A stretch of DNA of 64,000 nucleotides from a bacterium (GCA_044432865.1 JAWXUF010000001.1:2786-66785), one strand, 5' to 3'. Shown: positions 8,935 through 23,653, numbered from the stretch's first letter. The notes: generated by a model not told the origin, from the sequence alone. A program made the numbers and translations.

Positions 8935-9750
8935 TTATCGTGTTATTGTTGTTACATTATTGTTATTACTTGTAACTTTATGTGCTAGTCTAAGTTTGTC
9001 AGCTAGCATTGCAATAAATTCTGAATTTGTTGGTTTTGATTTATTATAACTAATAGTATAACTGAAAATAGATGAAATTGCATCAACGTTACCTCTATTC
9101 CATGCTACTTCAATTGCATGTCTTATAGCTCTTTCAGTTCTTGATGATGTTGTTTTATATTTCTTTGCAATTACAGGATATAAAACTTTAGTTATAGAAC
9201 CAAGTATTTCAATATTATTGTATACCATAGAAATTGATTCTCTTAAATATAGATACCCTTTAATGTGAGCTGGCACTCCAATCTCATGTAAAATCGCTGT
9301 GATTTCAGTATCTAAATCCACATATCCTGCCGATTGATTATTAAAAGAAATAACTTCTCCTTTTTTACTAACAGCAGGTCTAACAACTTCATTTATAATA
9401 TTTAAAACAGTTGGTAATTCAACAGGTTTAATTACAAAGTAATCAGCTCCTAAATCAGAAACTTTACTCATTATACTTTCACTATTAAATGCTGTAAGCA
9501 TAATTATTTTACTTGGTTTATTATATTTTGTTGGATTATTTTTAATCTCTTGTAATACTGATACACCATCTGTTTCTGGCATAAATACGTCTAATAGTAA
9601 TAAATCTACTTTGTTTGTTTCTAAAAAAGATAATACACTTTTCCCCGATGTGAATGTTGAAATAATCTCGATATCTTTTTGAACTCCTAAGAATTCTTCT
9701 AATAGTAATGATAATTCTTTATTATCATCTGCAATAATTATTTTTGTCAT
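8935..9750 (-). CDS. spo0A: Sporulation master response regulator Spo0A
   Basis: Receiver domain (IIADDN ... [13 protein letters not shown]) plus the Spo0A-specific C-terminal DNA-binding domain ([12 protein letters not shown] ... [18 protein letters not shown]). It is adjacent to spoIVB, as in bacilli and clostridia. Confidence 0.95.
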
Positions 9751-9980: not shown

Positions 9981-10979
9981 TTATTTTATTATGTCATAGT
10001 CAAGTTCTCTCAACATGTTCTCAGCAAAAAGTCCATATCCGTATTCAGGTGTATTAACAATTACGTGTGTTACAGCACCAATTAATTTTCCATCTTGAAT
10101 AATTGGGCTTCCACTCATACCTTGAATTACACCACCAGTGTAATTTAGTAATTCTTCATCAGTTATTTTAAATTTTATACCTTTTATATCATCACTAGTA
10201 TTTAATGTTACAGAGATTATTTCTATTGAATAACTTTTAACCTCAGTACCATTTATACAAGTTAATATTTGTGCACTACCTTTCTTAACTTCTTCTTTTG
10301 CTGCAACATAGTATAAATCTAAATTTGCAATAGAATCTGTATAAGTACCATATATTCCTTTATTAGTATTTAATTCTATTTCACCAATTACACCTTCGTC
10401 TATTACTGCTTTTTTAGAACCAGGATTTCCTTTGATTGATTTATCAACACCTGTTACTTCAGCTTTATATATATATCCTGAATCAGTATTAACTTTTGTA
10501 GCAATTTGATGTCCTAATGAAGCATAGTCTAAATCTTCTTGAGTAATAAATGTCATTGTACCTACACCAAGTATGTTATCTTTTACATATATCCCAAGTG
10601 ATATATTACCTTCATAACTTATAGGAGTAATGTGTGTACTTACTAATTGTTCATCTCTTAATAATTGGATGTTACATTGTTTTTCTCCATTTACCTTCAA
10701 AGCACCTATTAGACCATCTGCACTAATTATATTTACGTCATTTACTTTTAATATTACATCTCCAATTTCAAGGTTAGCATTCTCCCAAGGTTTTATTGTT
10801 TCTCCATTTACATTAACACTATACATTTTAGTTATTAATACTCCAGAGTTTAAACGTAATCCGATTGTTTCACCTGAAACATAAACTTGATTTTCATTTA
10901 ATATAAAATCCTTTGCAAATACACTTGTTGAAAACATAAGTGATATTATTAAAGTGAATGATAATATTATTTTTTTCAT
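9981..10979 (-). CDS. spoIVB: SpoIVB peptidase (S55 signalling serine protease)
   Basis: Signal/anchor sequence, PDZ-like segment (GDVILKVNDVNI) and the S55 active-site context GMSGSPI. Confidence 0.9.
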   Translation of the reverse strand: MKKIILSFTLIISLMFSTSVFAKDFILNENQVYVSGETIGLRLNSGVLITKMYSVNVNGETIKPWENANLEIGDVILKVNDVNIISADGLIGALKVNGEKQCNIQLLRDEQLVSTHITPISYEGNISLGIYVKDNILGVGTMTFITQEDLDYASLGHQIATKVNTDSGYIYKAEVTGVDKSIKGNPGSKKAVIDEGVIGEIELNTNKGIYGTYTDSIANLDLYYVAAKEEVKKGSAQILTCINGTEVKSYSIEIISVTLNTSDDIKGIKFKITDEELLNYTGGVIQGMSGSPIIQDGKLIGAVTHVIVNTPEYGYGLFAENMLRELDYDIIK

Positions 10980-16772: not shown

Positions 16773-16795
16773 AAAAAAACCACTAATAATAGTGG
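16773..16795 (-). terminator. Weak terminator after spoIIIAH, before the nusB promoter
   Basis: 6-bp stem ccacta/tagtgg (16780..16785 and 16790..16795) followed on the minus strand by TTTTTTT. The stem is short and AT-rich. Confidence 0.5.
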
Positions 16796-16804
16796 AATTT
16801 TTAT

Positions 16805-17278
16805 TTATATTGATTTCGGTGAAACTTCTACTTTAATATTACTTCCAAATACATCTTTCATAATTGATGTTATCTCAATAAATTCTTGTGTAGTAGGAAC
16901 ATAATTTAGTATGTATACAGAAACAAAATTATCCTCATTCACAACAAAGCAATCAAGATATCCTAAATTCTCTACAAATGTTTCAGCAAGTACTTCTAAT
17001 TCAGTTAATTCAAGTATTTCTTGCATCGTTTCAAATGCATCACTTTTCATATCATCACTATATGTGTCTGATGCGATTATGTTTTCTAAATCAACAACAT
17101 ACTCTTCTCTTTGAGCAAGAATTTCTAATCTCATCGAAGCAAACTCTGGATGTTCAGTAGTTATATTTTCACTTACAGTTGGTGCAATAATACCTTCTTC
17201 CGGCATATTAATATAATAAATTGATAACATCATTACAACAGCTAATAAAAAAAGTGAAAGTTTATTTTTCTTAATCAT
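16805..17278 (-). CDS. spoIIIAH: Stage III sporulation protein AH-like
   Basis: 157 aa. The N-terminal anchor MIKKNKLSLFLLAVVMMLSIYYINMPEE closely parallels B. subtilis SpoIIIAH (MLKKQTVWLLTMLSLVVVLSVYYIMSPE, from memory). The C-terminal FASMRLE...ARE..., LGY.D..V and KVEVSPK segments parallel its YscJ-like domain. It lies upstream of nusB, as in Bacillus. Confidence 0.75.
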   Translation of the reverse strand: MIKKNKLSLFLLAVVMMLSIYYINMPEEGIIAPTVSENITTEHPEFASMRLEILAQREEYVVDLENIIASDTYSDDMKSDAFETMQEILELTELEVLAETFVENLGYLDCFVVNEDNFVSVYILNYVPTTQEFIEITSIMKDVFGSNIKVEVSPKSI

Positions 17279-17327
17279 TTACATGTCCCCCTATTGTTTT
17301 CAATAAAGTATATGCAAAGTAATTGAA

Positions 17328-20300
17328 TTATATTCCTAATTTACTTTTAAAAATATTAATAATATCTATATAAGTTAATTGTTGATTATACACTTTACCC
17401 ATATAACAATTAATATATTTTTTGTAATGTTCTATCTCTTCATTTTTATTTGTTTCATTTAAAACAAATTTAACATCTAAATTAGATAATATATTAGAAA
17501 GAGACTTAATATATTCATCATTAAATTCATTCATATTTTTAAAATTTTTCAGTAAGAAATAAGAGGGTTTAACAAGAGATAGATCATCAATATTATTTAA
17601 GGCAATATGATACCCTTGATTCATTAAATAGATAATGTTATCAACTGCACCATTGTACACTCTATCAATTTTTAAAATAACTCTTTCTTTTGTAATTTTG
17701 AATTGTTTTGCCATTTCTTCTAGATAATTTACAAAACTTTTTTTCACTAAACTATACTCGTCAATTTTAATTACAACATTAATACTATAATCAATTTTAC
17801 TAGATATCAAATTCATTTCATGAAATGTTCTTTGAATTAAATACTGCTCTAACGTTGTTGTCATATTTTTACGTTTAATTACTTCTTCTAAAATTCTTAC
17901 ATCAACTTTATAATTACTTAAGTTAAGTTTAGACTCATAAAATTCAATTAAACTATCATTAACATTAACACACTGTGTAAATAAAATCCCAAGATTCTTT
18001 TGATCAATAGATTCACTGATATATGTGATAAGTTGTTCTCTTAAAAATCTTTCTTTATATAGCTCAATGTCGTAAAATCCTACATTTTCATCTAAAAAGT
18101 CGTCAACATTTAAAATGGAATCACTTAATATCTCTAACATTTTATCTAATGATTTTTCTTTAGTGTCAACAGTACTTCTATAAGTACCATAGGTAAATCT
18201 AGGAATTAATCTATTATTGATTAACGATAACTTCTCAATTAAGTATTGATCTAACTTGTTAATTATTTGTTTCAATACTCTTTTATCATTTGTATCTTTT
18301 ACTAATACTATTATTTTATCAAAGTTCAGATGGTAATAATCATAATCTTTATTAAACTCAGGTAATAATTGTCCTATACATTTTAATATATCCATACTGA
18401 ATTTTTCTTGATATAAATATGTGTATTTTTTTAAATCTTTAAAATTTAATAAAATAGCACTAAATTTTTTCATATCAAAATATTTATATATTTCTACATT
18501 TAATGATTGATTATTTTTTAAATTAGTTATTGGATTATGATATGCAGTAACAATTAAATCTCTTTTATTAGATTCTACTTTAGTATAATCTTCAAATATA
18601 AATAACAATTTATAATCACTAATCTTTGTGGTTTTAATTAACACTTTTTTCTCATTATTAAAAGTAACTAATTGTTCAAAATAGTTATCTTCAATACTTA
18701 ATGAATTATAATTAGCAAGAAACTCTTTGTAATCATCCATTGAAATATTAGACACAAAACTATTAAATGTTACTTTATTTTTTACGCCTAATAAATTTGT
18801 AATCTCTTTGTTACAATAAAAATAATCTGTATCACTAAAAGCATAGTAAAACATCTTTGATCCAAGTATTTCTAATTTACTTTCCGTTTCATAAAAAACT
18901 CTTTCTTTTTCATAGTTAATAACTGAAATAGAATTGTAAAATTTCGCGAAACAATGCAGTTTTTCGAAATTAAGAACACCTTCAATCATATTATGATTTT
19001 CAGAAACAAAATATATTGCCCCAAAACATTTATCTGTAAAAAGAGGGAAAATTGTTGCATAGTTAAATTCAATTATTTCATTATTAAAAGGGTTAAACAA
19101 ATTGTCTCGTTGGGTATTAAAAGAAATTATTTCAACATCAGATTGATGGAAATTATCTATAATTTCTAAAGTAACATCTTTTTTTATATAAAGCCTTTCC
19201 TTCTTGAAATGAAATGATTCGAACTCTTTTGTAATAATATAACAATCATTAAATGGAACTTTTTCATTCAATTTAATTAATGATAAACGTAGTTGTTCTC
19301 TAAATCTCTCGTTAGATTGAAACGGTTTGAATATATCAATTGTCTCCTGATAAAAATCACTCATCTCATTTAAAGTAGGTTTAGTTTTTTTTATCTTTTT
19401 AAAAACAGGTGTTTCTATATTAGTATTTTCTTTAGGTTTCTTAATTTTAATTGCTTTTATTATATTTTGATGTATGTAATCTATTTCTTTGTATACTTTG
19501 ACATTACTTACTTCTTTTAACCTTTGTTTATATAGTTCAATTGATTGTCTATTTTGTAAAATAGTATACAATTCTATACATAACTGATAATAATCTTTTT
19601 TAACATCTGTTGATGCTCTTTCCATTACTTCTTCATATTTAGCTTCTAAAATAGAACATCTTTTATAATTACCTTTTTTAAAATAAATCTTTAATGTTAA
19701 TAGATTAACTTTACTACCAAAGTATTCACTTCTTACAGGGTTTGAGTTTAATATTTCTAATGACTTTTCATATTCTTCTAATTGATAATAATTAGTTGCT
19801 TCATAATATAATAATGATTCAAAAACTTCAAAGTCACCTAACTCAAGAGCTAACTCTTTTGTTGTATCTAAATTTTTATTAAATTTATAAAACTCATTAC
19901 CATCAAAGTAAGCTTTTGCAAGTAAAAACATACCTGCTAACCTATTTGCTTTTGATGTATCATCTTGTAGAAATAAATTTATATATCTAATTCTTTCTCC
20001 AATATCATTTTTATGAAACAATATCATATCTTGATAATATATTTCTGTATCATATGAATTTAATAATTCTTTTTTTTGGTTAATTGCATCTAAACATTCT
20101 TTTCTATAATCATCAATTGTTAATTCAATGAATTTATCTAATATAGTTATTAAGTTTTCCGATTTATACTTCTTTGTAAATGCTTCAACTACATTAACCA
20201 TGAAATCAATTTGTTTAGTTTTAGAATATAAAGAAAGTAAATGACATACTACTATTGCATGTTCTTCATCATCTACGCTAGTTTTATTTAAAAATCGCTG

Positions 20301-20351
20301 GATTCTTGAAATTGAATCATCAGATGGTTCTAATTTTAGTATACTTTCCAT
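17328..20351 (-). CDS. Large cytoplasmic multidomain protein: N-terminal TPR-like repeats, central alpha/beta region, degenerate GGDEF-like and degenerate EAL-like domains
   Basis: 1,007 aa counted from the ATG at 20351. The GGGAG RBS overlaps the ysnB stop, and the track start (GTG at 20360) lies inside the RBS. TPR/Rap-like helices span about aa 95-290. The AYHNPITNLKNNQSL ... YHLNFDKIIVLV ... TYGTY segment aligns to a GGDEF fold with NFDKI in place of GGDEF. The C-terminal 240 aa align to an EAL fold with substitutions at all the motifs I checked (FTQ for YQP, YES for EAL, KIDR for EITE, NNID for DDFG, LNETN for AEGVE). Confidence 0.6.
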   Translation of the reverse strand: MESILKLEPSDDSISRIQRFLNKTSVDDEEHAIVVCHLLSLYSKTKQIDFMVNVVEAFTKKYKSENLITILDKFIELTIDDYRKECLDAINQKKELLNSYDTEIYYQDMILFHKNDIGERIRYINLFLQDDTSKANRLAGMFLLAKAYFDGNEFYKFNKNLDTTKELALELGDFEVFESLLYYEATNYYQLEEYEKSLEILNSNPVRSEYFGSKVNLLTLKIYFKKGNYKRCSILEAKYEEVMERASTDVKKDYYQLCIELYTILQNRQSIELYKQRLKEVSNVKVYKEIDYIHQNIIKAIKIKKPKENTNIETPVFKKIKKTKPTLNEMSDFYQETIDIFKPFQSNERFREQLRLSLIKLNEKVPFNDCYIITKEFESFHFKKERLYIKKDVTLEIIDNFHQSDVEIISFNTQRDNLFNPFNNEIIEFNYATIFPLFTDKCFGAIYFVSENHNMIEGVLNFEKLHCFAKFYNSISVINYEKERVFYETESKLEILGSKMFYYAFSDTDYFYCNKEITNLLGVKNKVTFNSFVSNISMDDYKEFLANYNSLSIEDNYFEQLVTFNNEKKVLIKTTKISDYKLLFIFEDYTKVESNKRDLIVTAYHNPITNLKNNQSLNVEIYKYFDMKKFSAILLNFKDLKKYTYLYQEKFSMDILKCIGQLLPEFNKDYDYYHLNFDKIIVLVKDTNDKRVLKQIINKLDQYLIEKLSLINNRLIPRFTYGTYRSTVDTKEKSLDKMLEILSDSILNVDDFLDENVGFYDIELYKERFLREQLITYISESIDQKNLGILFTQCVNVNDSLIEFYESKLNLSNYKVDVRILEEVIKRKNMTTTLEQYLIQRTFHEMNLISSKIDYSINVVIKIDEYSLVKKSFVNYLEEMAKQFKITKERVILKIDRVYNGAVDNIIYLMNQGYHIALNNIDDLSLVKPSYFLLKNFKNMNEFNDEYIKSLSNILSNLDVKFVLNETNKNEEIEHYKKYINCYMGKVYNQQLTYIDIINIFKSKLGI

Positions 20352-20363
20352 AACATTCACTCC

Positions 20364-20789
20364 CTACAAATATTTTATTTCAAACTTATCATTTTCAAAT
20401 ACAATATACGAACCATTATCTCTTATTGATCCTGGATTGTACATTGTAATATCCTCTTCAACTTTTGTAATCCTATGGGTATGTCCAAAAATTACAATAT
20501 TACACATTGAGCTTTTAGTATGGTAATATAAATTGTTTAATGTAAATTTCACATTAAACATGTGTCCATGAGTTAAAAGAACTTTTTTGTTTTCTATTTC
20601 TATTATTAATTCATTTGGTAATTGTATATTATCACAATTTCCTTTTACACTTATGATATTATATTTTTTTAACTGTTCATTAGATAATTCACTATCTCCA
20701 AGACAATAAAATATACCTTCTTCACGACTAACTAATCTTTCTAATGAATCAATATCGTTATGTAGATCACTAAAAAATATTATTTTCAT
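20364..20789 (-). CDS. ysnB: YfcE/YsnB-type metallophosphoesterase
   Basis: 141 aa with MKIIFFSDLHND, GDS, GNCD and GHTH motifs. It overlaps rdgB by 20 nt, matching the B. subtilis ysnA-ysnB pair. Confidence 0.8.
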   Translation of the reverse strand: MKIIFFSDLHNDIDSLERLVSREEGIFYCLGDSELSNEQLKKYNIISVKGNCDNIQLPNELIIEIENKKVLLTHGHMFNVKFTLNNLYYHTKSSMCNIVIFGHTHRITKVEEDITMYNPGSIRDNGSYIVFENDKFEIKYL

Positions 20790-21351
20790 TTAAGAAATTA
20801 AGAAGCAACTTTGTAGCTTCACTCCTATGTGATATATTATTTTTTTCATTTGAATCTAATTGAGCTAACGTTTTTTCATAACCATTAGGAATGAATATAG
20901 GATCATAACCAAATCCATTTGTACCATTTTTTTCTTTTGATATGATACCATTTAAAATTCCTTCAAAATAATACACATTTTCTGATGTATATAAACATAG
21001 AGTACAGTTAAAAAAAGCATCTCTTTGTTCATGTAGTTGTTCTAATATATAATCCATTTTTTCATCAAAACTATCCAAATTCATGTATCTAGCAGAATGA
21101 ATTCCTGGAGCATTATTTAAGGCTTTAACACATAATCCTGAATCATCAGAAAGTACAGGTTTATTAAATAATTCAAAAATAGTTTTTCCCTTAATAAAGG
21201 CATTTTCTTTAAATGTTAAACCGTCTTCTACTATCTCATCGGCATAACATAACTCTTCTAAACCAATACATTTTATATTGTATTTATTAAGTATTTCATT
21301 AAACTCTTTTAGTTTTCCTTTATTGCTCGTAGCTATAATAATTTCATGCAT
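20770..21351 (-). CDS. rdgB: Non-canonical purine NTP pyrophosphatase (RdgB/HAM1 family)
   Basis: 193 aa with IIIATSNKGKLKEF, E.G.TF.ENA, SDDSGL and FGYDPIF motifs. Confidence 0.9.
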   Translation of the reverse strand: MHEIIIATSNKGKLKEFNEILNKYNIKCIGLEELCYADEIVEDGLTFKENAFIKGKTIFELFNKPVLSDDSGLCVKALNNAPGIHSARYMNLDSFDEKMDYILEQLHEQRDAFFNCTLCLYTSENVYYFEGILNGIISKEKNGTNGFGYDPIFIPNGYEKTLAQLDSNEKNNISHRSEATKLLLNFLNENNIF

Positions 21352-21391: not shown

Positions 21392-21886
21392 TTAAACATT
21401 ACTTAAAGGTATGCCATCAATAATATTTACATATCCAAGTTTTTCAATATAGGTTCCTTCTACTTTAATTTTAAGAATATCATATCCTAAATTTGAAAAA
21501 GAGTTTCTTAATTGAGAAAATATTTGATATGATAATTCTTCTTCAAATCTTAAAAAATCTTCTGATAAATTAAGAATTAGTGTTTCGTCTTCCACTTCAT
21601 AATTTATTAAAGTTGTTGAAGTAATTAATTTTGTATCATATGATTCTTTAATTGAATTACTTTTGTTTGTTAGTAAATCAAATACATACTCAACTTCTAC
21701 TTTTTCGTTAAAAACAGTTGATACATAAACTAAAGTATCATTATCATAATAAAAAATATTATGTGAAACTCTTTGTACTTGCTCATATACTATTTCATAT
21801 TTTTCTACTTTATTATTAGATAACCCTAATCTAATAACAAAAACACTACATACTATAAATAATGGAATTATTATTTTCATTTTCAT
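21392..21886 (-). CDS. GerMN-domain (GerM-like) membrane-anchored protein
   Basis: A GGTGAT RBS plus ATG at 21886 gives MKMKIIIPLFIVCSVFV (anchor or signal). The C-terminal LNLSEDF ... Q(I)..(L)..S.. LGY ... IKVEG pattern resembles a single GerMN domain. gerM is near rph-ysnA-ysnB in B. subtilis. The track N-terminal extension to 21967 lacks an RBS and would overlap the divergent gene. Confidence 0.5.
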   Translation of the reverse strand: MKMKIIIPLFIVCSVFVIRLGLSNNKVEKYEIVYEQVQRVSHNIFYYDNDTLVYVSTVFNEKVEVEYVFDLLTNKSNSIKESYDTKLITSTTLINYEVEDETLILNLSEDFLRFEEELSYQIFSQLRNSFSNLGYDILKIKVEGTYIEKLGYVNIIDGIPLSNV

Positions 21887-21952
21887 TTTTATCACCATTA
21901 AATTATATGTATAAAATTTTAATATATGATATAATAAACAAGAGGTGATTTT

Positions 21953-22744
21953 ATGATAAATGATCAATCAATACGTTACAAAAAAGGACTTGGTTCTTAT
22001 TTCTTTATATTTTACATTGTTGCTGCTGTAGTATCTTTAGTAATACAGCAAATATACATTGATGTACATAAAATAAATTATGAAATATTGCAAAATATAA
22101 TTACGTCAGGTGACTATTTCCATTACTTAGAGGAGTTCCCAGTAACAACCGTTCAAATAATTCAAATGCTATCTTTAACTAATTTTGTTGTATATTCAAT
22201 ATTAGTAATTACACTTTTATATGTACTGAAGAAAGATTTTATTGAAGATGCTGTAATATTCAAAAAGGAAACATTAAATAAAACAATAAAAACTCTTATT
22301 ATATATAGCATCATTTTTATAACTCTAAATTATTCTATAAATTACATCATATATTTAATTCAAGGATTAATAGGATATGACTCTTCTTCTACTAACCAAA
22401 TATTTATTGAAGTCGCTTTATCAAAAGCAACAATTCTTACAGTAATATCAACAGTAATTTTGGGTCCAATAGCTGAAGAATTAATTTTCAGGAAATGTTT
22501 CTTTGGATTAATTAAAAATAAAAAACTTGCATTATTAGCAAGTTCATTAGTATTTGGGTTTATTCACATTATATCGTCTATTGGATCATTTGATTTTTTA
22601 GAAACAATAATGCTACTTATCCCTTATATAACAGCAGGTATATTACTTGGTTTAATATATATAAAGACAGAATTAAATATTTATTATGTAACAATAATTC
22701 ATATATTAGTTAATTTAATTTCTATTATTCTTATTCTTATCTAA
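21953..22744 (+). CDS. CPBP-family intramembrane glutamic endopeptidase (CAAX protease/Abi family)
   Basis: 263 aa and polytopic, with GPIAEELIFRKCFFG (EExxxR) and FGFIH motifs. A GAGGTGA RBS lies upstream. Confidence 0.85.
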   Translation: MINDQSIRYKKGLGSYFFIFYIVAAVVSLVIQQIYIDVHKINYEILQNIITSGDYFHYLEEFPVTTVQIIQMLSLTNFVVYSILVITLLYVLKKDFIEDAVIFKKETLNKTIKTLIIYSIIFITLNYSINYIIYLIQGLIGYDSSSTNQIFIEVALSKATILTVISTVILGPIAEELIFRKCFFGLIKNKKLALLASSLVFGFIHIISSIGSFDFLETIMLLIPYITAGILLGLIYIKTELNIYYVTIIHILVNLISIILILI

Positions 22745-23653
22745 CATTTTTAAATTAGGTTTATCCTCATAAAAATTTAAGTAATCAATTAAAGACAATG
22801 AAAAATTGTCTTTTTTATTTAATATTTTGTTTGTTATTGCTTTATCAATTATATTGTCACACAAATACTTATAAATATGAGAGTGATTTTTTTTATAATA
22901 AATAAAATCAAGAGATGATAAATAATTTTCAATCAAATCAGATATCTCATAATGATTATTAACCGAAACATCAATTAAGTTTTCACTATACTTGTTTGTA
23001 ATATCTACAACCGGTAGATATTGTAATAACTCCCTAACAATATCTCTATTTCCAAATTTAACTGCATAAAAAAATACTGATTCATCATTATTATTTTTTT
23101 GATTTATCAAAAATCTATTAGCATACTTCTTAACTAATTTAAGATTGTTATATTTAACTGCATAATGCAATATAGAATCATTTATATGATTATAATGTAT
23201 ATTTCCATCATCAAACTTTTCAACGTCATGATAATTAAATTTAATAGACTTTAATAATGCATTCTCTTGTTTATTATTAACTAGAGTCAAATCTGTATTA
23301 TCTGTTAAAAAATCTACTACAGCTTGATTATTTGTCTTAATTGCATAGAATAGTGCAACATTACCAAAACAATCTTTAATGTTTGCATTCGCTTTATTTC
23401 TTATTAATATTTTAATTATTCCTAATCTACCTTTTATAGCTGCATCAAACAAAGGACTTTGCCCATTAGAGTCTTTTAAATCGATATCAATATCATAATC
23501 AATTAAAACATTTATACAATCTATTGCTTTACCTAAAACAGCATAGTGTAATAAACCTCTTCCAAATTCATCTTGCACATTAAGACTACTGTATTGCAAA
23601 TACTTTTTTAATTCTAACAAATTATTCCTTTTTACTTCAAATAAAATATCCAT
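22715..23653 (-). CDS. Ankyrin-repeat protein (about 6 repeats), no signal peptide
   Basis: Repeated G..LLHYAV ... ID..D..G.SPLF.A and ILHYAVKYNNLKLVK-type 33-aa ANK units. Its 3' end overlaps the CPBP gene convergently by 30 nt. Confidence 0.8.
   Translation of the reverse strand: MDILFEVKRNNLLELKKYLQYSSLNVQDEFGRGLLHYAVLGKAIDCINVLIDYDIDIDLKDSNGQSPLFDAAIKGRLGIIKILIRNKANANIKDCFGNVALFYAIKTNNQAVVDFLTDNTDLTLVNNKQENALLKSIKFNYHDVEKFDDGNIHYNHINDSILHYAVKYNNLKLVKKYANRFLINQKNNNDESVFFYAVKFGNRDIVRELLQYLPVVDITNKYSENLIDVSVNNHYEISDLIENYLSSLDFIYYKKNHSHIYKYLCDNIIDKAITNKILNKKDNFSLSLIDYLNFYEDKPNLKMLDKNKNNRN

Follow-up and report, generated by a model that had tools for sequence, protein, structure and literature searches.

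The open reading frame at positions 17328-20351 on the minus strand of the window (the whole 64,000-nucleotide stretch of bacterial DNA that was analysed), for which we use the working name BIG for both gene and product, encodes a 1007-aa protein in which a TPR domain, a GAF/PAS-like domain, a signalling helix, a PAS domain, a dead GGDEF domain and a dead EAL domain follow one another in that order. We favour, with a probability of roughly 0.55, the view that BIG is a non-enzymatic sensor-scaffold pseudoenzyme that signals by conformational partner binding and is probably blind to c-di-GMP. A scaffold or sensor role without enzymatic activity had been put forward in the original prediction, and it is the best reading.

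The gene and its upstream neighbourhood are as follows.

17328..20351, minus strand: whole BIG gene, 1007 aa plus TAA stop (ORF list and translation), with orthologues of 995-1058 aa order-wide
20360..20364, minus strand: GGGAG ribosome-binding site of BIG, 8 nt ahead of the ATG (sequence reading)
20364..20789, minus strand: ysnB-like metallophosphoesterase gene (Metallophos_2), upstream of BIG (PF12850, E 1.9e-23)
20770..21351, minus strand: rdgB, a Ham1-family non-canonical NTP pyrophosphatase gene (PF01725, E 5e-60; conserved synteny)

Translation from the ATG at 20351 yields the 1007-aa product, and homologues also start at ATG; an alternative GTG at 20360 would make the protein 1010 aa. 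The TAA stop occupies 17328-17330. Given that the peak 19-residue hydropathy of BIG is 1.13, no membrane segment is predicted, and the product is, on this prediction, soluble and cytoplasmic.

Direct reading of the sequence bears out the overlap that had been claimed between the ribosome-binding site and the ysnB stop, in that the first G of GGGAG is common to the TAG stop (20364-20366) of the ysnB-like gene, and the tight packing of BIG behind rdgB and ysnB, which themselves overlap by 20 nt, was likewise confirmed. The ysnB-like gene lies upstream of BIG in nearly all of 79 loci. Acholeplasma-type loci carry an APH/choline-kinase-like gene between the two, and in the present genome the kinase gene is encoded outside the BIG operon, on contig C17. 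BIG would be expressed from this rdgB-ysnB housekeeping operon.

The C-terminal half of the protein contains the two domains on which the assignment as a pseudoenzyme turns.

18102..18566, minus strand: GGDEF-fold domain, catalytically dead, residues 596-750 (profile against the PDB; Pfam GGDEF)
18312..18326, minus strand: NFDKI in place of GG(D/E)EF, residues 676-680 (alignment to RbdA and profile map)
18279..18290, minus strand: NDKR, residues 688-691, the family N-D-x-R motif just past the dead GGDEF hairpin (conservation of D689 and R691)
17337..18074, minus strand: EAL-fold (TIM-barrel-like) domain, catalytically dead, residues 760-1005 (Pfam EAL; Foldseek; residue map)
17922..17930, minus strand: KLN in place of EAL, residues 808-810 (residue map)

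Searches with single sequences were nearly blind to these folds: Pfam on BIG alone gave as its sole result a sub-threshold EAL match (20.7 bits against a cut-off of 31.3), BIG alone against NCBIfam gave nothing, and a phmmer search of the PDB with the A. laidlawii orthologue likewise found no match. Family profiles were therefore needed. A 43-member family profile searched against the PDB matched RbdA/PA0861 (2.9e-24), DosP (3e-17) and FimX (3e-16), as well as MorA and LapD, and Foldseek with the AlphaFold model of BIG returned the same tandem PAS-GGDEF-EAL structures (8e-18), with TM values of 0.75-0.82 and an rmsd of about 3 A for the EAL-domain matches. When Pfam models were run on 12 members of the family, EAL (PF00563) matched all 12 (best 3e-10) and GGDEF (PF00990) matched 3 (best 8e-11), and the A. 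laidlawii orthologue scored 39.8 bits for EAL, above the cut-off. Profile searches and structure comparison thus support both of the folds that had been recognised by the original prediction, and, as judged from the profiles and models, BIG carries a GGDEF and an EAL fold that are both catalytically dead. The GGDEF domain is the most conserved domain of BIG in the close clade, with a mean identity of 72% versus 52% for the TPR domain; the closest DNA relative shares only 62% amino-acid identity, a distance at which saturation of synonymous sites is to be expected.

The NFDKI sequence at the GGDEF motif was confirmed. The position of the metal-binding aspartate is occupied by N636, those of the guanine-binding asparagine and aspartate by T644 and M653, and the R and D positions of the RxxD I-site by K668 and Y670 (family consensus E and G); none of the motif, metal and guanine residues is conserved in the 43 orthologues. 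D689 and R691 of the N-D-x-R motif, kept in 95% and 93%, respectively, of an unbiased set of 106 sequences and both invariant in the 43-sequence alignment A2, sit at a helix N-cap outside the former active site.

In the EAL domain the catalytic and metal positions map to K808 (E), K862 (N), K894/R897 (ExxE, read as KIDR), L933 (K), N965/N968 (EGVE) and M984 (Q), the DDFG loop corresponds to a 7-residue deletion, and none of these residues is conserved in the BIG family. The ExLxR arginine is replaced by S812, where the family consensus is D. The earlier EAL alignment was right to place KIDR at ExxE and EGVE inside LNETN, but the EAL motif itself is KLN, two residues after the YES that had been assigned to it, and the DDFG loop is deleted rather than represented by NNID. 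These small corrections leave the verdict of a degenerate protein unchanged; on proper alignment the catalytic residues are all lost. The residue map also answers whether the c-di-GMP-contacting residues are retained, which had been suggested as a check: BIG has lost the RxxD I-site, the ExLxR arginine and the DDFG loop, and so have the 43 orthologues.

Strong purifying selection acts on both dead domains, and the genes next to BIG code for hydrolases of nucleotides and phosphoesters, so it was not unreasonable to consider that BIG might be a cryptic enzyme in which the EAL-type barrel or the GGDEF-like domain had been re-tooled for a different reaction. The metal ligands are lost, however, and no EAL-like polar residue is conserved family-wide: in A2 only Q793, Y805 and G985 come close to invariance, and none of them reaches 85% in the unbiased set. 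The placement of the conserved D689 and R691 away from the former active site also argues against such a re-tooling, which we regard as very improbable.

Upstream of this module lies a series of domains that would supply the input to a sensor-scaffold protein.

19461..20351, minus strand: TPR-type helical repeat domain, residues 1-297, 14-15 helices (AlphaFold model; profile A5; TPR_19)
19374..19460, minus strand: lysine-rich linker, residues 298-326, net charge +8 by charge count, predicted disordered (pLDDT <50 over residues 285-319)
18972..19373, minus strand: GAF/PAS-like sensor domain, residues 327-460 (sub-model and Foldseek)
19182..19211, minus strand: beta-hairpin HFKKERLYIK, residues 381-390, holding K383, R386, Y388 and K390, which together with R351 are the best-conserved residues of the whole BIG family
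18852..18971, minus strand: long connecting helix of the signalling-helix type, residues 461-500 (AlphaFold models)
18576..18851, minus strand: PAS domain, residues 501-592 (PAS_3; model; Foldseek; RbdA PAS-GGDEF-EAL the top match)

With the BIG sequence alone no TPR model passed. Profile A5, the family profile of BIG residues 1-300, matched consensus TPR proteins at E 3e-17 and 4e-10, LapB at 1.5e-4 and HOP TPR2A in the PDB, Pfam TPR_19 matched 15 of the 43 family members, and the AlphaFold model shows paired helices over residues 11-297. The proposed N-terminal TPR repeats are therefore real as far as profile A5 and TPR_19 can tell, but a Rap/RRNPP-type identity was not supported, given that the 54 PDB matches obtained with the N-terminal profile include no Rap, NprR or PlcR chain.

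For the central region, an AlphaFold sub-model of residues 322-600 (pLDDT 87.6) was matched by Foldseek to tandem PAS/GAF modules, namely LOV-PAS, phytochrome GAF-PHY and DhaR GAF-PAS, at E values of 3e-7 to 1e-4, and model and Foldseek agree on PAS/GAF alpha/beta folds joined by a signalling helix. PAS_3 matches 2 of 12 family members. The loci in A2 were collected using the hairpin peptide H-Y-K-K-E-R-L-Y-D-K as the search pattern, and the complete invariance of that peptide in A2 is consequently in part an artefact of ascertainment; in an unbiased profile search the pattern H.KKER.Y.K was kept in just 26 of 105 full-length relatives. In the unbiased 106-sequence set K383 (94%), R386 (92%), Y388 (92%) and K390 (85%) nevertheless still rank among the best-kept positions of BIG, the others being R351, Y544, Y647, Y673, D689 and R691.

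A single copy of BIG occurs in 134 of the 151 genomes sampled and in 33 of the 36 genera of the Acholeplasma/Anaeroplasma order (Acholeplasmatales), and it is kept at about 1000 aa even in 0.7-Mb genomes. The remark that this combination of domains and context was not recognised as described holds insofar as we found no description of the family in the literature searched, but the protein is not peculiar to the window, having an orthologue order-wide. Phylogenetic profiles have little discriminating power for near-universal genes such as this one.

Most genomes of the order contain 5-22 strong GGDEF matches, and 14 GGDEF/EAL proteins have been counted in A. laidlawii (PMC2408644). Given these numbers of strong GGDEF genes, c-di-GMP signalling is ancestral in the order. 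The present genome and genera g6, g33 and g14 have weak GGDEF matches only; in the genomes examined these come from BIG or from a ~520-aa paralogue whose motif reads TGTDF, TGSTF, GGATF or SGLDF, and in the present genome the sole other GGDEF protein reads TGTDF at the motif. A search of this genome, which is 90.7% complete, for a canonical GGDEF, a second EAL, PilZ and HD-GYP found none of them, although at that completeness the missing portion could still encode a cyclase, and EAL searches of this genome and of the g6, g33 and g14 genomes examined gave no match besides BIG. In the search for c-di-GMP-I riboswitches the control genomes gave no match.

The GGDEF, EAL, PilZ and HD-GYP searches, together with the family-wide loss of the I-site, the ExLxR arginine and the DDFG loop, count against the idea that BIG is a c-di-GMP receptor, which the original prediction had offered as an option. 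In a wider form of that proposal BIG would be a receptor for a nucleotide second messenger (c-di-GMP, pGpG, GTP or another) at a non-canonical GGDEF-EAL or GAF-like site, with messenger levels controlling partner binding as in LapD and FimX. The tandem GGDEF-EAL fold is preserved in full and its matches include LapD and FimX, the GGDEF-like domain still has conserved polar and aromatic residues (Y647, Y673, D689, R691), as does the GAF-like hairpin, the operon neighbours RdgB and the metallophosphoesterase act on nucleotides or phosphoesters, and the wealth of GGDEF genes in most Acholeplasmatales, A. laidlawii included, is also consistent with it. On the other hand, neither the three canonical contacts nor the EGVE glutamates are conserved anywhere in the family, and BIG is kept in lineages where canonical cyclase, phosphodiesterase, PilZ and HD-GYP were not found. 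We consider such a receptor unlikely. Since intact cyclases are numerous in most of the order, c-di-GMP could still play a part in the ancestral and common role of BIG, by way of a non-canonical site such as one near Y647, Y673, D689 and R691. Its single-copy retention across the order, including genomes in which no working c-di-GMP enzyme was found, suggests that BIG probably signals via partners and not via chemistry.

The gene downstream of BIG had led to the proposal of a connection with sporulation.

16805..17278, minus strand: SpoIIIAH-like gene downstream of BIG, 157 aa with an N-terminal membrane anchor (PF12685, E 6.7e-15)
17307..17314, minus strand: CATATACT box, 36 nt ahead of the spoIIIAH-like ATG within the 49-nt spacer, a candidate for the -10 element of a separate promoter
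16780..16795, minus strand: terminator-like hairpin and T run 3' of the spoIIIAH-like gene (pattern scan)

The coordinates confirm the 49-nt gap between the BIG stop and the spoIIIAH-like ATG (17278), and the pattern scan agrees that a terminator-like hairpin comes solely after the spoIIIAH-like gene, the one at 16780-16795 being the only such hairpin on the BIG strand. The coupled expression of the two genes that had been deduced from this arrangement fared less well. A CATAnnnT match, read as CATATAnT, occurs at -31 to -36 in 17 of the 20 loci in which both genes are adjacent, and this position-conserved box suggests that the spoIIIAH-like gene has its own promoter within the spacer; consensus promoter scans, with 106 matches found versus 110 expected, were not above chance.

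A scaffold functionally bound up with sporulation and expressed together with the SpoIIIAH channel component would fit the adjacency of the two genes, conserved across one family with no intervening terminator, and the presence of Spo0A in this genome and in 40 of the 61 genomes of its family, of SpoIVB within the window and of SpoIVA on the same contig. Yet the spoIIIAH-like gene adjoins BIG solely in Anaeroplasmataceae-type loci, and in two other families, where BIG is equally conserved and a different gene lies downstream, Spo0A was found in 0 of 60 and 0 of 22 genomes. SpoIIIAE is an essential membrane part of the sporulation channel; SpoIIIAE, SpoIIGA and SpoVAC were looked for in this genome and not found. 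The proposed link to a sporulation channel is thus not a trait of the BIG family, and given in addition the promoter-like box of the spoIIIAH-like gene itself, a sporulation scaffold is in our view highly unlikely.

A different gene, encoding a protein of about 350 aa, lies directly 3' of BIG in 47 loci, the frames abutting or overlapping in several (e.g. L027), and this conserved, translationally coupled protein of the Acholeplasmataceae is a candidate partner of BIG. It is present in 114 of 151 genomes; its homologue in the present genome (contig C16:20905-21996) is unlinked to BIG. The partner family has an invariant R-N-D-I-V-G-H (Rx5H) motif, R109...H115, and conserved R227 and R231. A HEPN identity was unsupported, the family profile giving no HEPN or nuclease match in the PDB or Pfam.

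In E. coli, sRNA decay is influenced independently of c-di-GMP by CsrD, a protein whose GGDEF and EAL domains are degenerate. By this precedent BIG might be an RNA-turnover adaptor of the CsrD type, whose dead GGDEF-EAL module and lysine-rich linker would either bind RNA themselves or hand it on to the partner, possibly a HEPN-like ribonuclease. The +8 linker and the basic conserved hairpin of BIG, the close linkage of the two genes and the invariant Rx5H motif and arginines of the partner are all consistent with this. Weighing against it are the failure of the partner profile to match any nuclease, the lack of linkage in this genome, the search of the 0.7-Mb genus g33, which yielded BIG but not the partner, and the lack of a detectable RNA-binding domain in BIG. 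An RNA adaptor therefore seems to us distinctly doubtful.

For BIG as a sensor-scaffold pseudoenzyme, the following mechanism can be proposed. The GAF/PAS-like and PAS domains would sense a small, probably anionic, cytoplasmic ligand, for which the conserved basic and aromatic cluster of R351, K383, R386, Y388 and K390 is the candidate site. The signal would travel via the long helix to the GGDEF-EAL module, which would neither make nor break c-di-GMP, probably would not bind it, and would serve as a conformational output that binds protein partners, the ~350-aa protein of Acholeplasmataceae loci being one candidate. The TPR domain may provide a second docking surface. A more speculative extension, which we think improbable, is that BIG and the Rx5H protein act together in wall-less Bacilli as a signal-gated effector pair of a sort not described before, perhaps a regulated ribonuclease, with BIG a c-di-GMP-independent relic of a second-messenger protein turned near-essential housekeeping regulator; a regulator of that kind would explain survival of the gene in 0.7-Mb genomes.

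Among known systems RbdA (PA0861) and DosP are the best profile and fold matches of BIG, with which they have in common the PAS-GGDEF-EAL order and long connecting helices. The EAL domains of both are enzymatically active, their ELL/EAL, DDFG and EGVE motifs being intact, and the GGDEF domain of RbdA binds GTP, whereas BIG has none of these features and adds the TPR and GAF-like domains. LapD and FimX resemble BIG in using a dead GGDEF and a dead EAL in tandem as a conformational output that controls partner binding, and the EAL motif reads KVL in LapD and KLN in BIG. They differ in keeping the c-di-GMP-binding residues of the EAL site (the ExLxR arginine and the DDFG region), which the BIG family does not, and BIG, unlike them, persists where no cyclase was found; LapD is moreover a membrane protein with HAMP and periplasmic domains, while BIG is predicted to be soluble. 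Degenerate GGDEF/EAL proteins of the CsrD and YdiV type neither synthesise, break down nor bind c-di-GMP and act through macromolecular interactions, and they offer the closest functional analogy to BIG. At the sequence level CsrD shows no orthology to BIG, and it is membrane-anchored with a HAMP-like region where BIG has TPR, GAF-like and PAS domains.

Interest in degenerate GGDEF-EAL proteins usually centres on their role as c-di-GMP receptors in Proteobacteria. In BIG such a protein is the product of a core gene, kept in one copy, of an entire order of Bacilli with reduced genomes, and its retention at about 1000 residues in 0.7-Mb genomes and in lineages with no detected c-di-GMP enzyme makes it a natural test case for what pseudoenzyme modules of this kind do after the messenger is lost. 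It points to a conserved function in organisms that are used as near-minimal cell models and, given that Acholeplasma laidlawii is cultivable and carries a BIG orthologue, the question is directly testable.

The gene for BIG, a 1007-aa protein, and its junctions were read directly from the sequence, and the descriptive part of the original prediction (the reading frame, the overlap of its ribosome-binding site with the preceding stop codon, the 49-nt gap and the hairpin placed after spoIIIAH) was correct, since every one of these elements is present:

20360-20364, minus strand: GGGAG ribosome-binding site, sharing one G with the TAG stop of the Metallophos_2 (ysnB-like) gene and lying 8 nt before the BIG ATG
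17328-20351, minus strand: BIG open reading frame, 1007 aa from the ATG at 20351
17328-17330, minus strand: BIG stop codon TAA, followed after 49 nt by the spoIIIAH-like ATG at 17278
16805-17278, minus strand: SpoIIIAH-like gene, 157 aa (PF12685, E 7e-15)
16780-16795, minus strand: terminator-like hairpin after the spoIIIAH-like gene, the sole one on the minus strand there

The ysnB-like gene is itself overlapped for 20 nt by the upstream Ham1/rdgB gene, and nusB, xseA, xseB and dxs lie beyond the spoIIIAH-like gene. Directly upstream of rdgB, on the same strand and across a 40-nt gap, is a 191-aa open reading frame (21392-21967, minus strand) that has no Pfam match and a relative in one other locus only (L019), and it is a candidate for the first gene of the operon.

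The domain question was settled by homologues, because BIG of the window alone gave only an EAL match below the Pfam cut-off (20.7 bits, cut-off 31.3), and an NCBIfam scan was empty. The homologues comprised ten close ones at 50-72% identity and a distant full-length pair at 23-24%, the pair bearing precomputed Pfam GGDEF and EAL matches, and when 12 members were scanned one by one EAL was returned for all 12, GGDEF for three, and PAS_3 and a TPR family for two each. A profile of 43 orthologues, drawn from named Acholeplasma, Anaeroplasma, Mariniplasma and Peloplasma records, matched the tandem GGDEF-EAL structures of RbdA/PA0861 (E 2.9e-24, over profile positions 597-1001), DosP (3e-17), FimX (3e-16), MorA and LapD. 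An AlphaFold model of BIG (mean pLDDT 77) gave the same top matches in Foldseek, with isolated EAL domains superposing at TM 0.75-0.82, and both folds are thus supported by profile and model. Residues 322-600, modelled apart (pLDDT 87.6), formed two sensor-type domains, one GAF/PAS-like and one PAS, joined by a helix of about 37 residues, and resembled LOV-PAS, phytochrome GAF-PHY and DhaR GAF-PAS modules. The N-terminus had been described as TPR/Rap-type; a profile of residues 1-300 matched consensus TPR proteins (3e-17 and 4e-10) and LapB, and no Rap-type protein was among its matches, so that only the TPR assignment stands. Residues 298-326 make up a lysine-rich linker that is predicted to be disordered, and no membrane segment was found in BIG.

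Catalytic and ligand-binding positions were mapped by carrying the printed RbdA alignment onto the columns of the 43-member profile. In the GGDEF-like domain the signature is NFDKI (676-680), with N636 in place of the metal Asp, T644 and M653 in place of the Asn and Asp that bind guanine, and K668 and Y670 at the R and D of the I-site RxxD. In the EAL-like domain the signature is KLN (808-810) and ExxE is KIDR (894-897); S812 replaces the arginine of ExLxR, K862 the metal Asn, L933 the catalytic Lys, N965 and N968 the two glutamates of EGVE, and M984 the Gln, and the DDFG loop falls in a 7-residue deletion. The original by-eye alignment was therefore right that the EAL domain is degenerate and right about NFDKI and KIDR, whereas its YES lies two residues before the true EAL position and the DDFG loop, for which it read NNID, is deleted. 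No catalytic residue is intact in either domain after proper alignment, and none of the mapped catalytic or c-di-GMP positions is kept across the 43 orthologues, so the degeneracy is ancient and covers both catalysis and the canonical contacts to c-di-GMP. A cryptic enzyme is a reading to which we give very little credence.

If the domains are dead, they are nonetheless under purifying selection, as the dead GGDEF is the most conserved domain of the close clade (mean identity 72%, against 66% for GAF-like, 62% for EAL, 52% for TPR and 49% for PAS). The motif H-Y-K-K-E-R-L-Y-D-K was invariant in the 43-sequence set, a biased sample in this respect because the same peptide had served as the search pattern for the loci; for this reason conservation was re-tested with a profile of residues 322-600 against 1.8 billion representatives. 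The pattern H.KKER.Y.K was kept in only 26 of 105 full-length relatives, so that the invariance is partly an artefact. The best-kept positions in the unbiased set are R351, K383, R386, Y388, K390 (85%), Y544, Y647, Y673, D689 and R691. Five of these, R351 to K390, cluster as basic and aromatic side chains in or beside a beta-hairpin of the GAF-like domain, and D689 and R691 are part of an N-D-x-R motif right behind the dead GGDEF hairpin. In the EAL domain conservation stays below 85% at every residue in this set. BIG might instead be a non-canonical nucleotide receptor, a proposal we consider unlikely.

The window's genome is a 1.25-Mb assembly in 72 contigs (90.7% complete). By a search with the middle-module profile, a single copy of BIG of about 1000 aa occurs in 134 of 151 genomes and 33 of 36 genera of the order Acholeplasmatales, including all sampled 0.7-Mb genomes of genus g33; among the 151 its absence is essentially confined to genus g32 (0.6-0.9 Mb). 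Gene order in 79 fetched loci is near-invariant: an Ank-repeat gene, a CAAX protease gene on the opposite strand, rdgB, ysnB and BIG. In the window the Ank-repeat gene and the convergent CAAX/Rce1-like protease gene occupy 21953-23653, upstream of rdgB, and since they are syntenic with BIG in most of the order (L003-L081) the ankyrin protein is an old resident and not a recent acquisition.

Acholeplasma-type loci carry an APH/choline-kinase-like gene inserted ahead of BIG and, right after it and often abutting or overlapping, a gene for a protein of about 350 aa, which in Acholeplasmataceae is translationally coupled to BIG (for example L079 11011-12054). This protein has no known family by profile searches, which also gave no support for a HEPN-like identity, is present in 114 of the 151 genomes, and has among its invariants an R-N-D-I-V-G-H-P motif and R227/R231. 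In Anaeroplasmataceae-type loci, the window included, the spoIIIAH-like gene takes its place; in the window's genome the kinase-like gene is on contig C17 and the 350-aa gene on C16 (20905-21996; L089 5906-6997, plus strand), unlinked to BIG and upstream of typA/bipA. The coupling would suit a CsrD-like adaptor of RNA turnover acting with this Rx5H partner; the partner was not found in genus g33 in the 151-genome search, and we hold this reading to be distinctly improbable.

The original prediction also tied BIG to sporulation. The window holds:

8935-9750, minus strand: Spo0A
9981-10979, minus strand: SpoIVB
17307-17314, minus strand: CATATAnT box, CATATACT, in the 49-nt spacer that separates BIG from the spoIIIAH-like gene

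SpoIVA is on the same contig and a SASP gene is in the genome (contigs C1 and C43 hold sporulation genes); SpoIIIAE, SpoVAC and SpoIIGA were not found in this 90.7% complete assembly. Within the window's family, 40 of 61 genomes encode Spo0A and 19 of 40 SpoIIGA. The Acholeplasma/Anaeroplasma lineage is usually regarded as one of wall-less non-sporeformers, and the gene set in the window's lineage looks patchy, eroding or minimal. In two sister families that all keep BIG, Spo0A was found in none of 60 and none of 22 genomes, so BIG is not a sporulation-specific gene. Among the spacers compared (L003-L026 and L066) the box, as CATATA(C/A/T)T, is fixed at -31 to -36 from the spoIIIAH-like ATG in 17 of 20 loci while the spacer around it varies, which suggests that the spoIIIAH-like gene has a promoter of its own. 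A GGAGAGG-type ribosome-binding site follows the box, and a matching -35 region would fall within the 3'-terminal part of BIG. The box is similar to the -10 element recognised by mother-cell sigma factors (B. subtilis consensus CATACAnT or CATAnnnT), a lead rather than a test. Transcripts may read through from BIG into the spoIIIAH-like gene; a sporulation-linked scaffold as originally conceived nevertheless seems to us highly unlikely.

Across the order, most genomes return 5-22 strong GGDEF matches, in keeping with a published count of 14 GGDEF/EAL proteins in A. laidlawii (PMC2408644). Only weak matches were found in the window's genome and in genera g6, g33 and g14, and in the genomes examined they come either from BIG or from a PAS-GGDEF membrane paralogue of about 520 aa, whose motif is TGTDF (window's genome), TGSTF, GGATF or SGLDF and whose metal Asp is lost too. 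The paralogue of the window's genome (524 aa; C2:71.1-74.0 kb, L001 1438-3012, minus strand) combines membrane helices at its N-terminus with a PAS domain and a GGDEF fold, and is the sole Pfam GGDEF match there; its gene adjoins an IspD/IspF fusion gene. Orthologues of 506-523 aa (TGSTF, GGATF, SGLDF) are the only GGDEF match in four of five other reduced genomes checked, two 0.7-Mb g33 genomes included, and in the fifth the only match is BIG. No EAL other than BIG was found in these five, and no second EAL, PilZ or HD-GYP in the window's genome (90.7% complete). That BIG is kept where no canonical component for making, breaking or reading c-di-GMP was detected, in genomes that are all incomplete assemblies, argues that its function does not need c-di-GMP.

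We therefore favour, at a probability of roughly 55%, a non-enzymatic and probably c-di-GMP-blind sensor-scaffold, in which the GAF/PAS and PAS domains would be the ligand sensors, and the TPR domain and dead GGDEF-EAL module the interaction surfaces. Degenerate GGDEF-EAL proteins are already known in LapD, FimX and CsrD, and no description of the BIG family was found in the literature searched. What is new relative to those proteins is the TPR and GAF-like N-terminal half, the complete loss of c-di-GMP contacts, and the standing of BIG, even in lineages with no cyclase found, as a core gene of a genome-reduced order.
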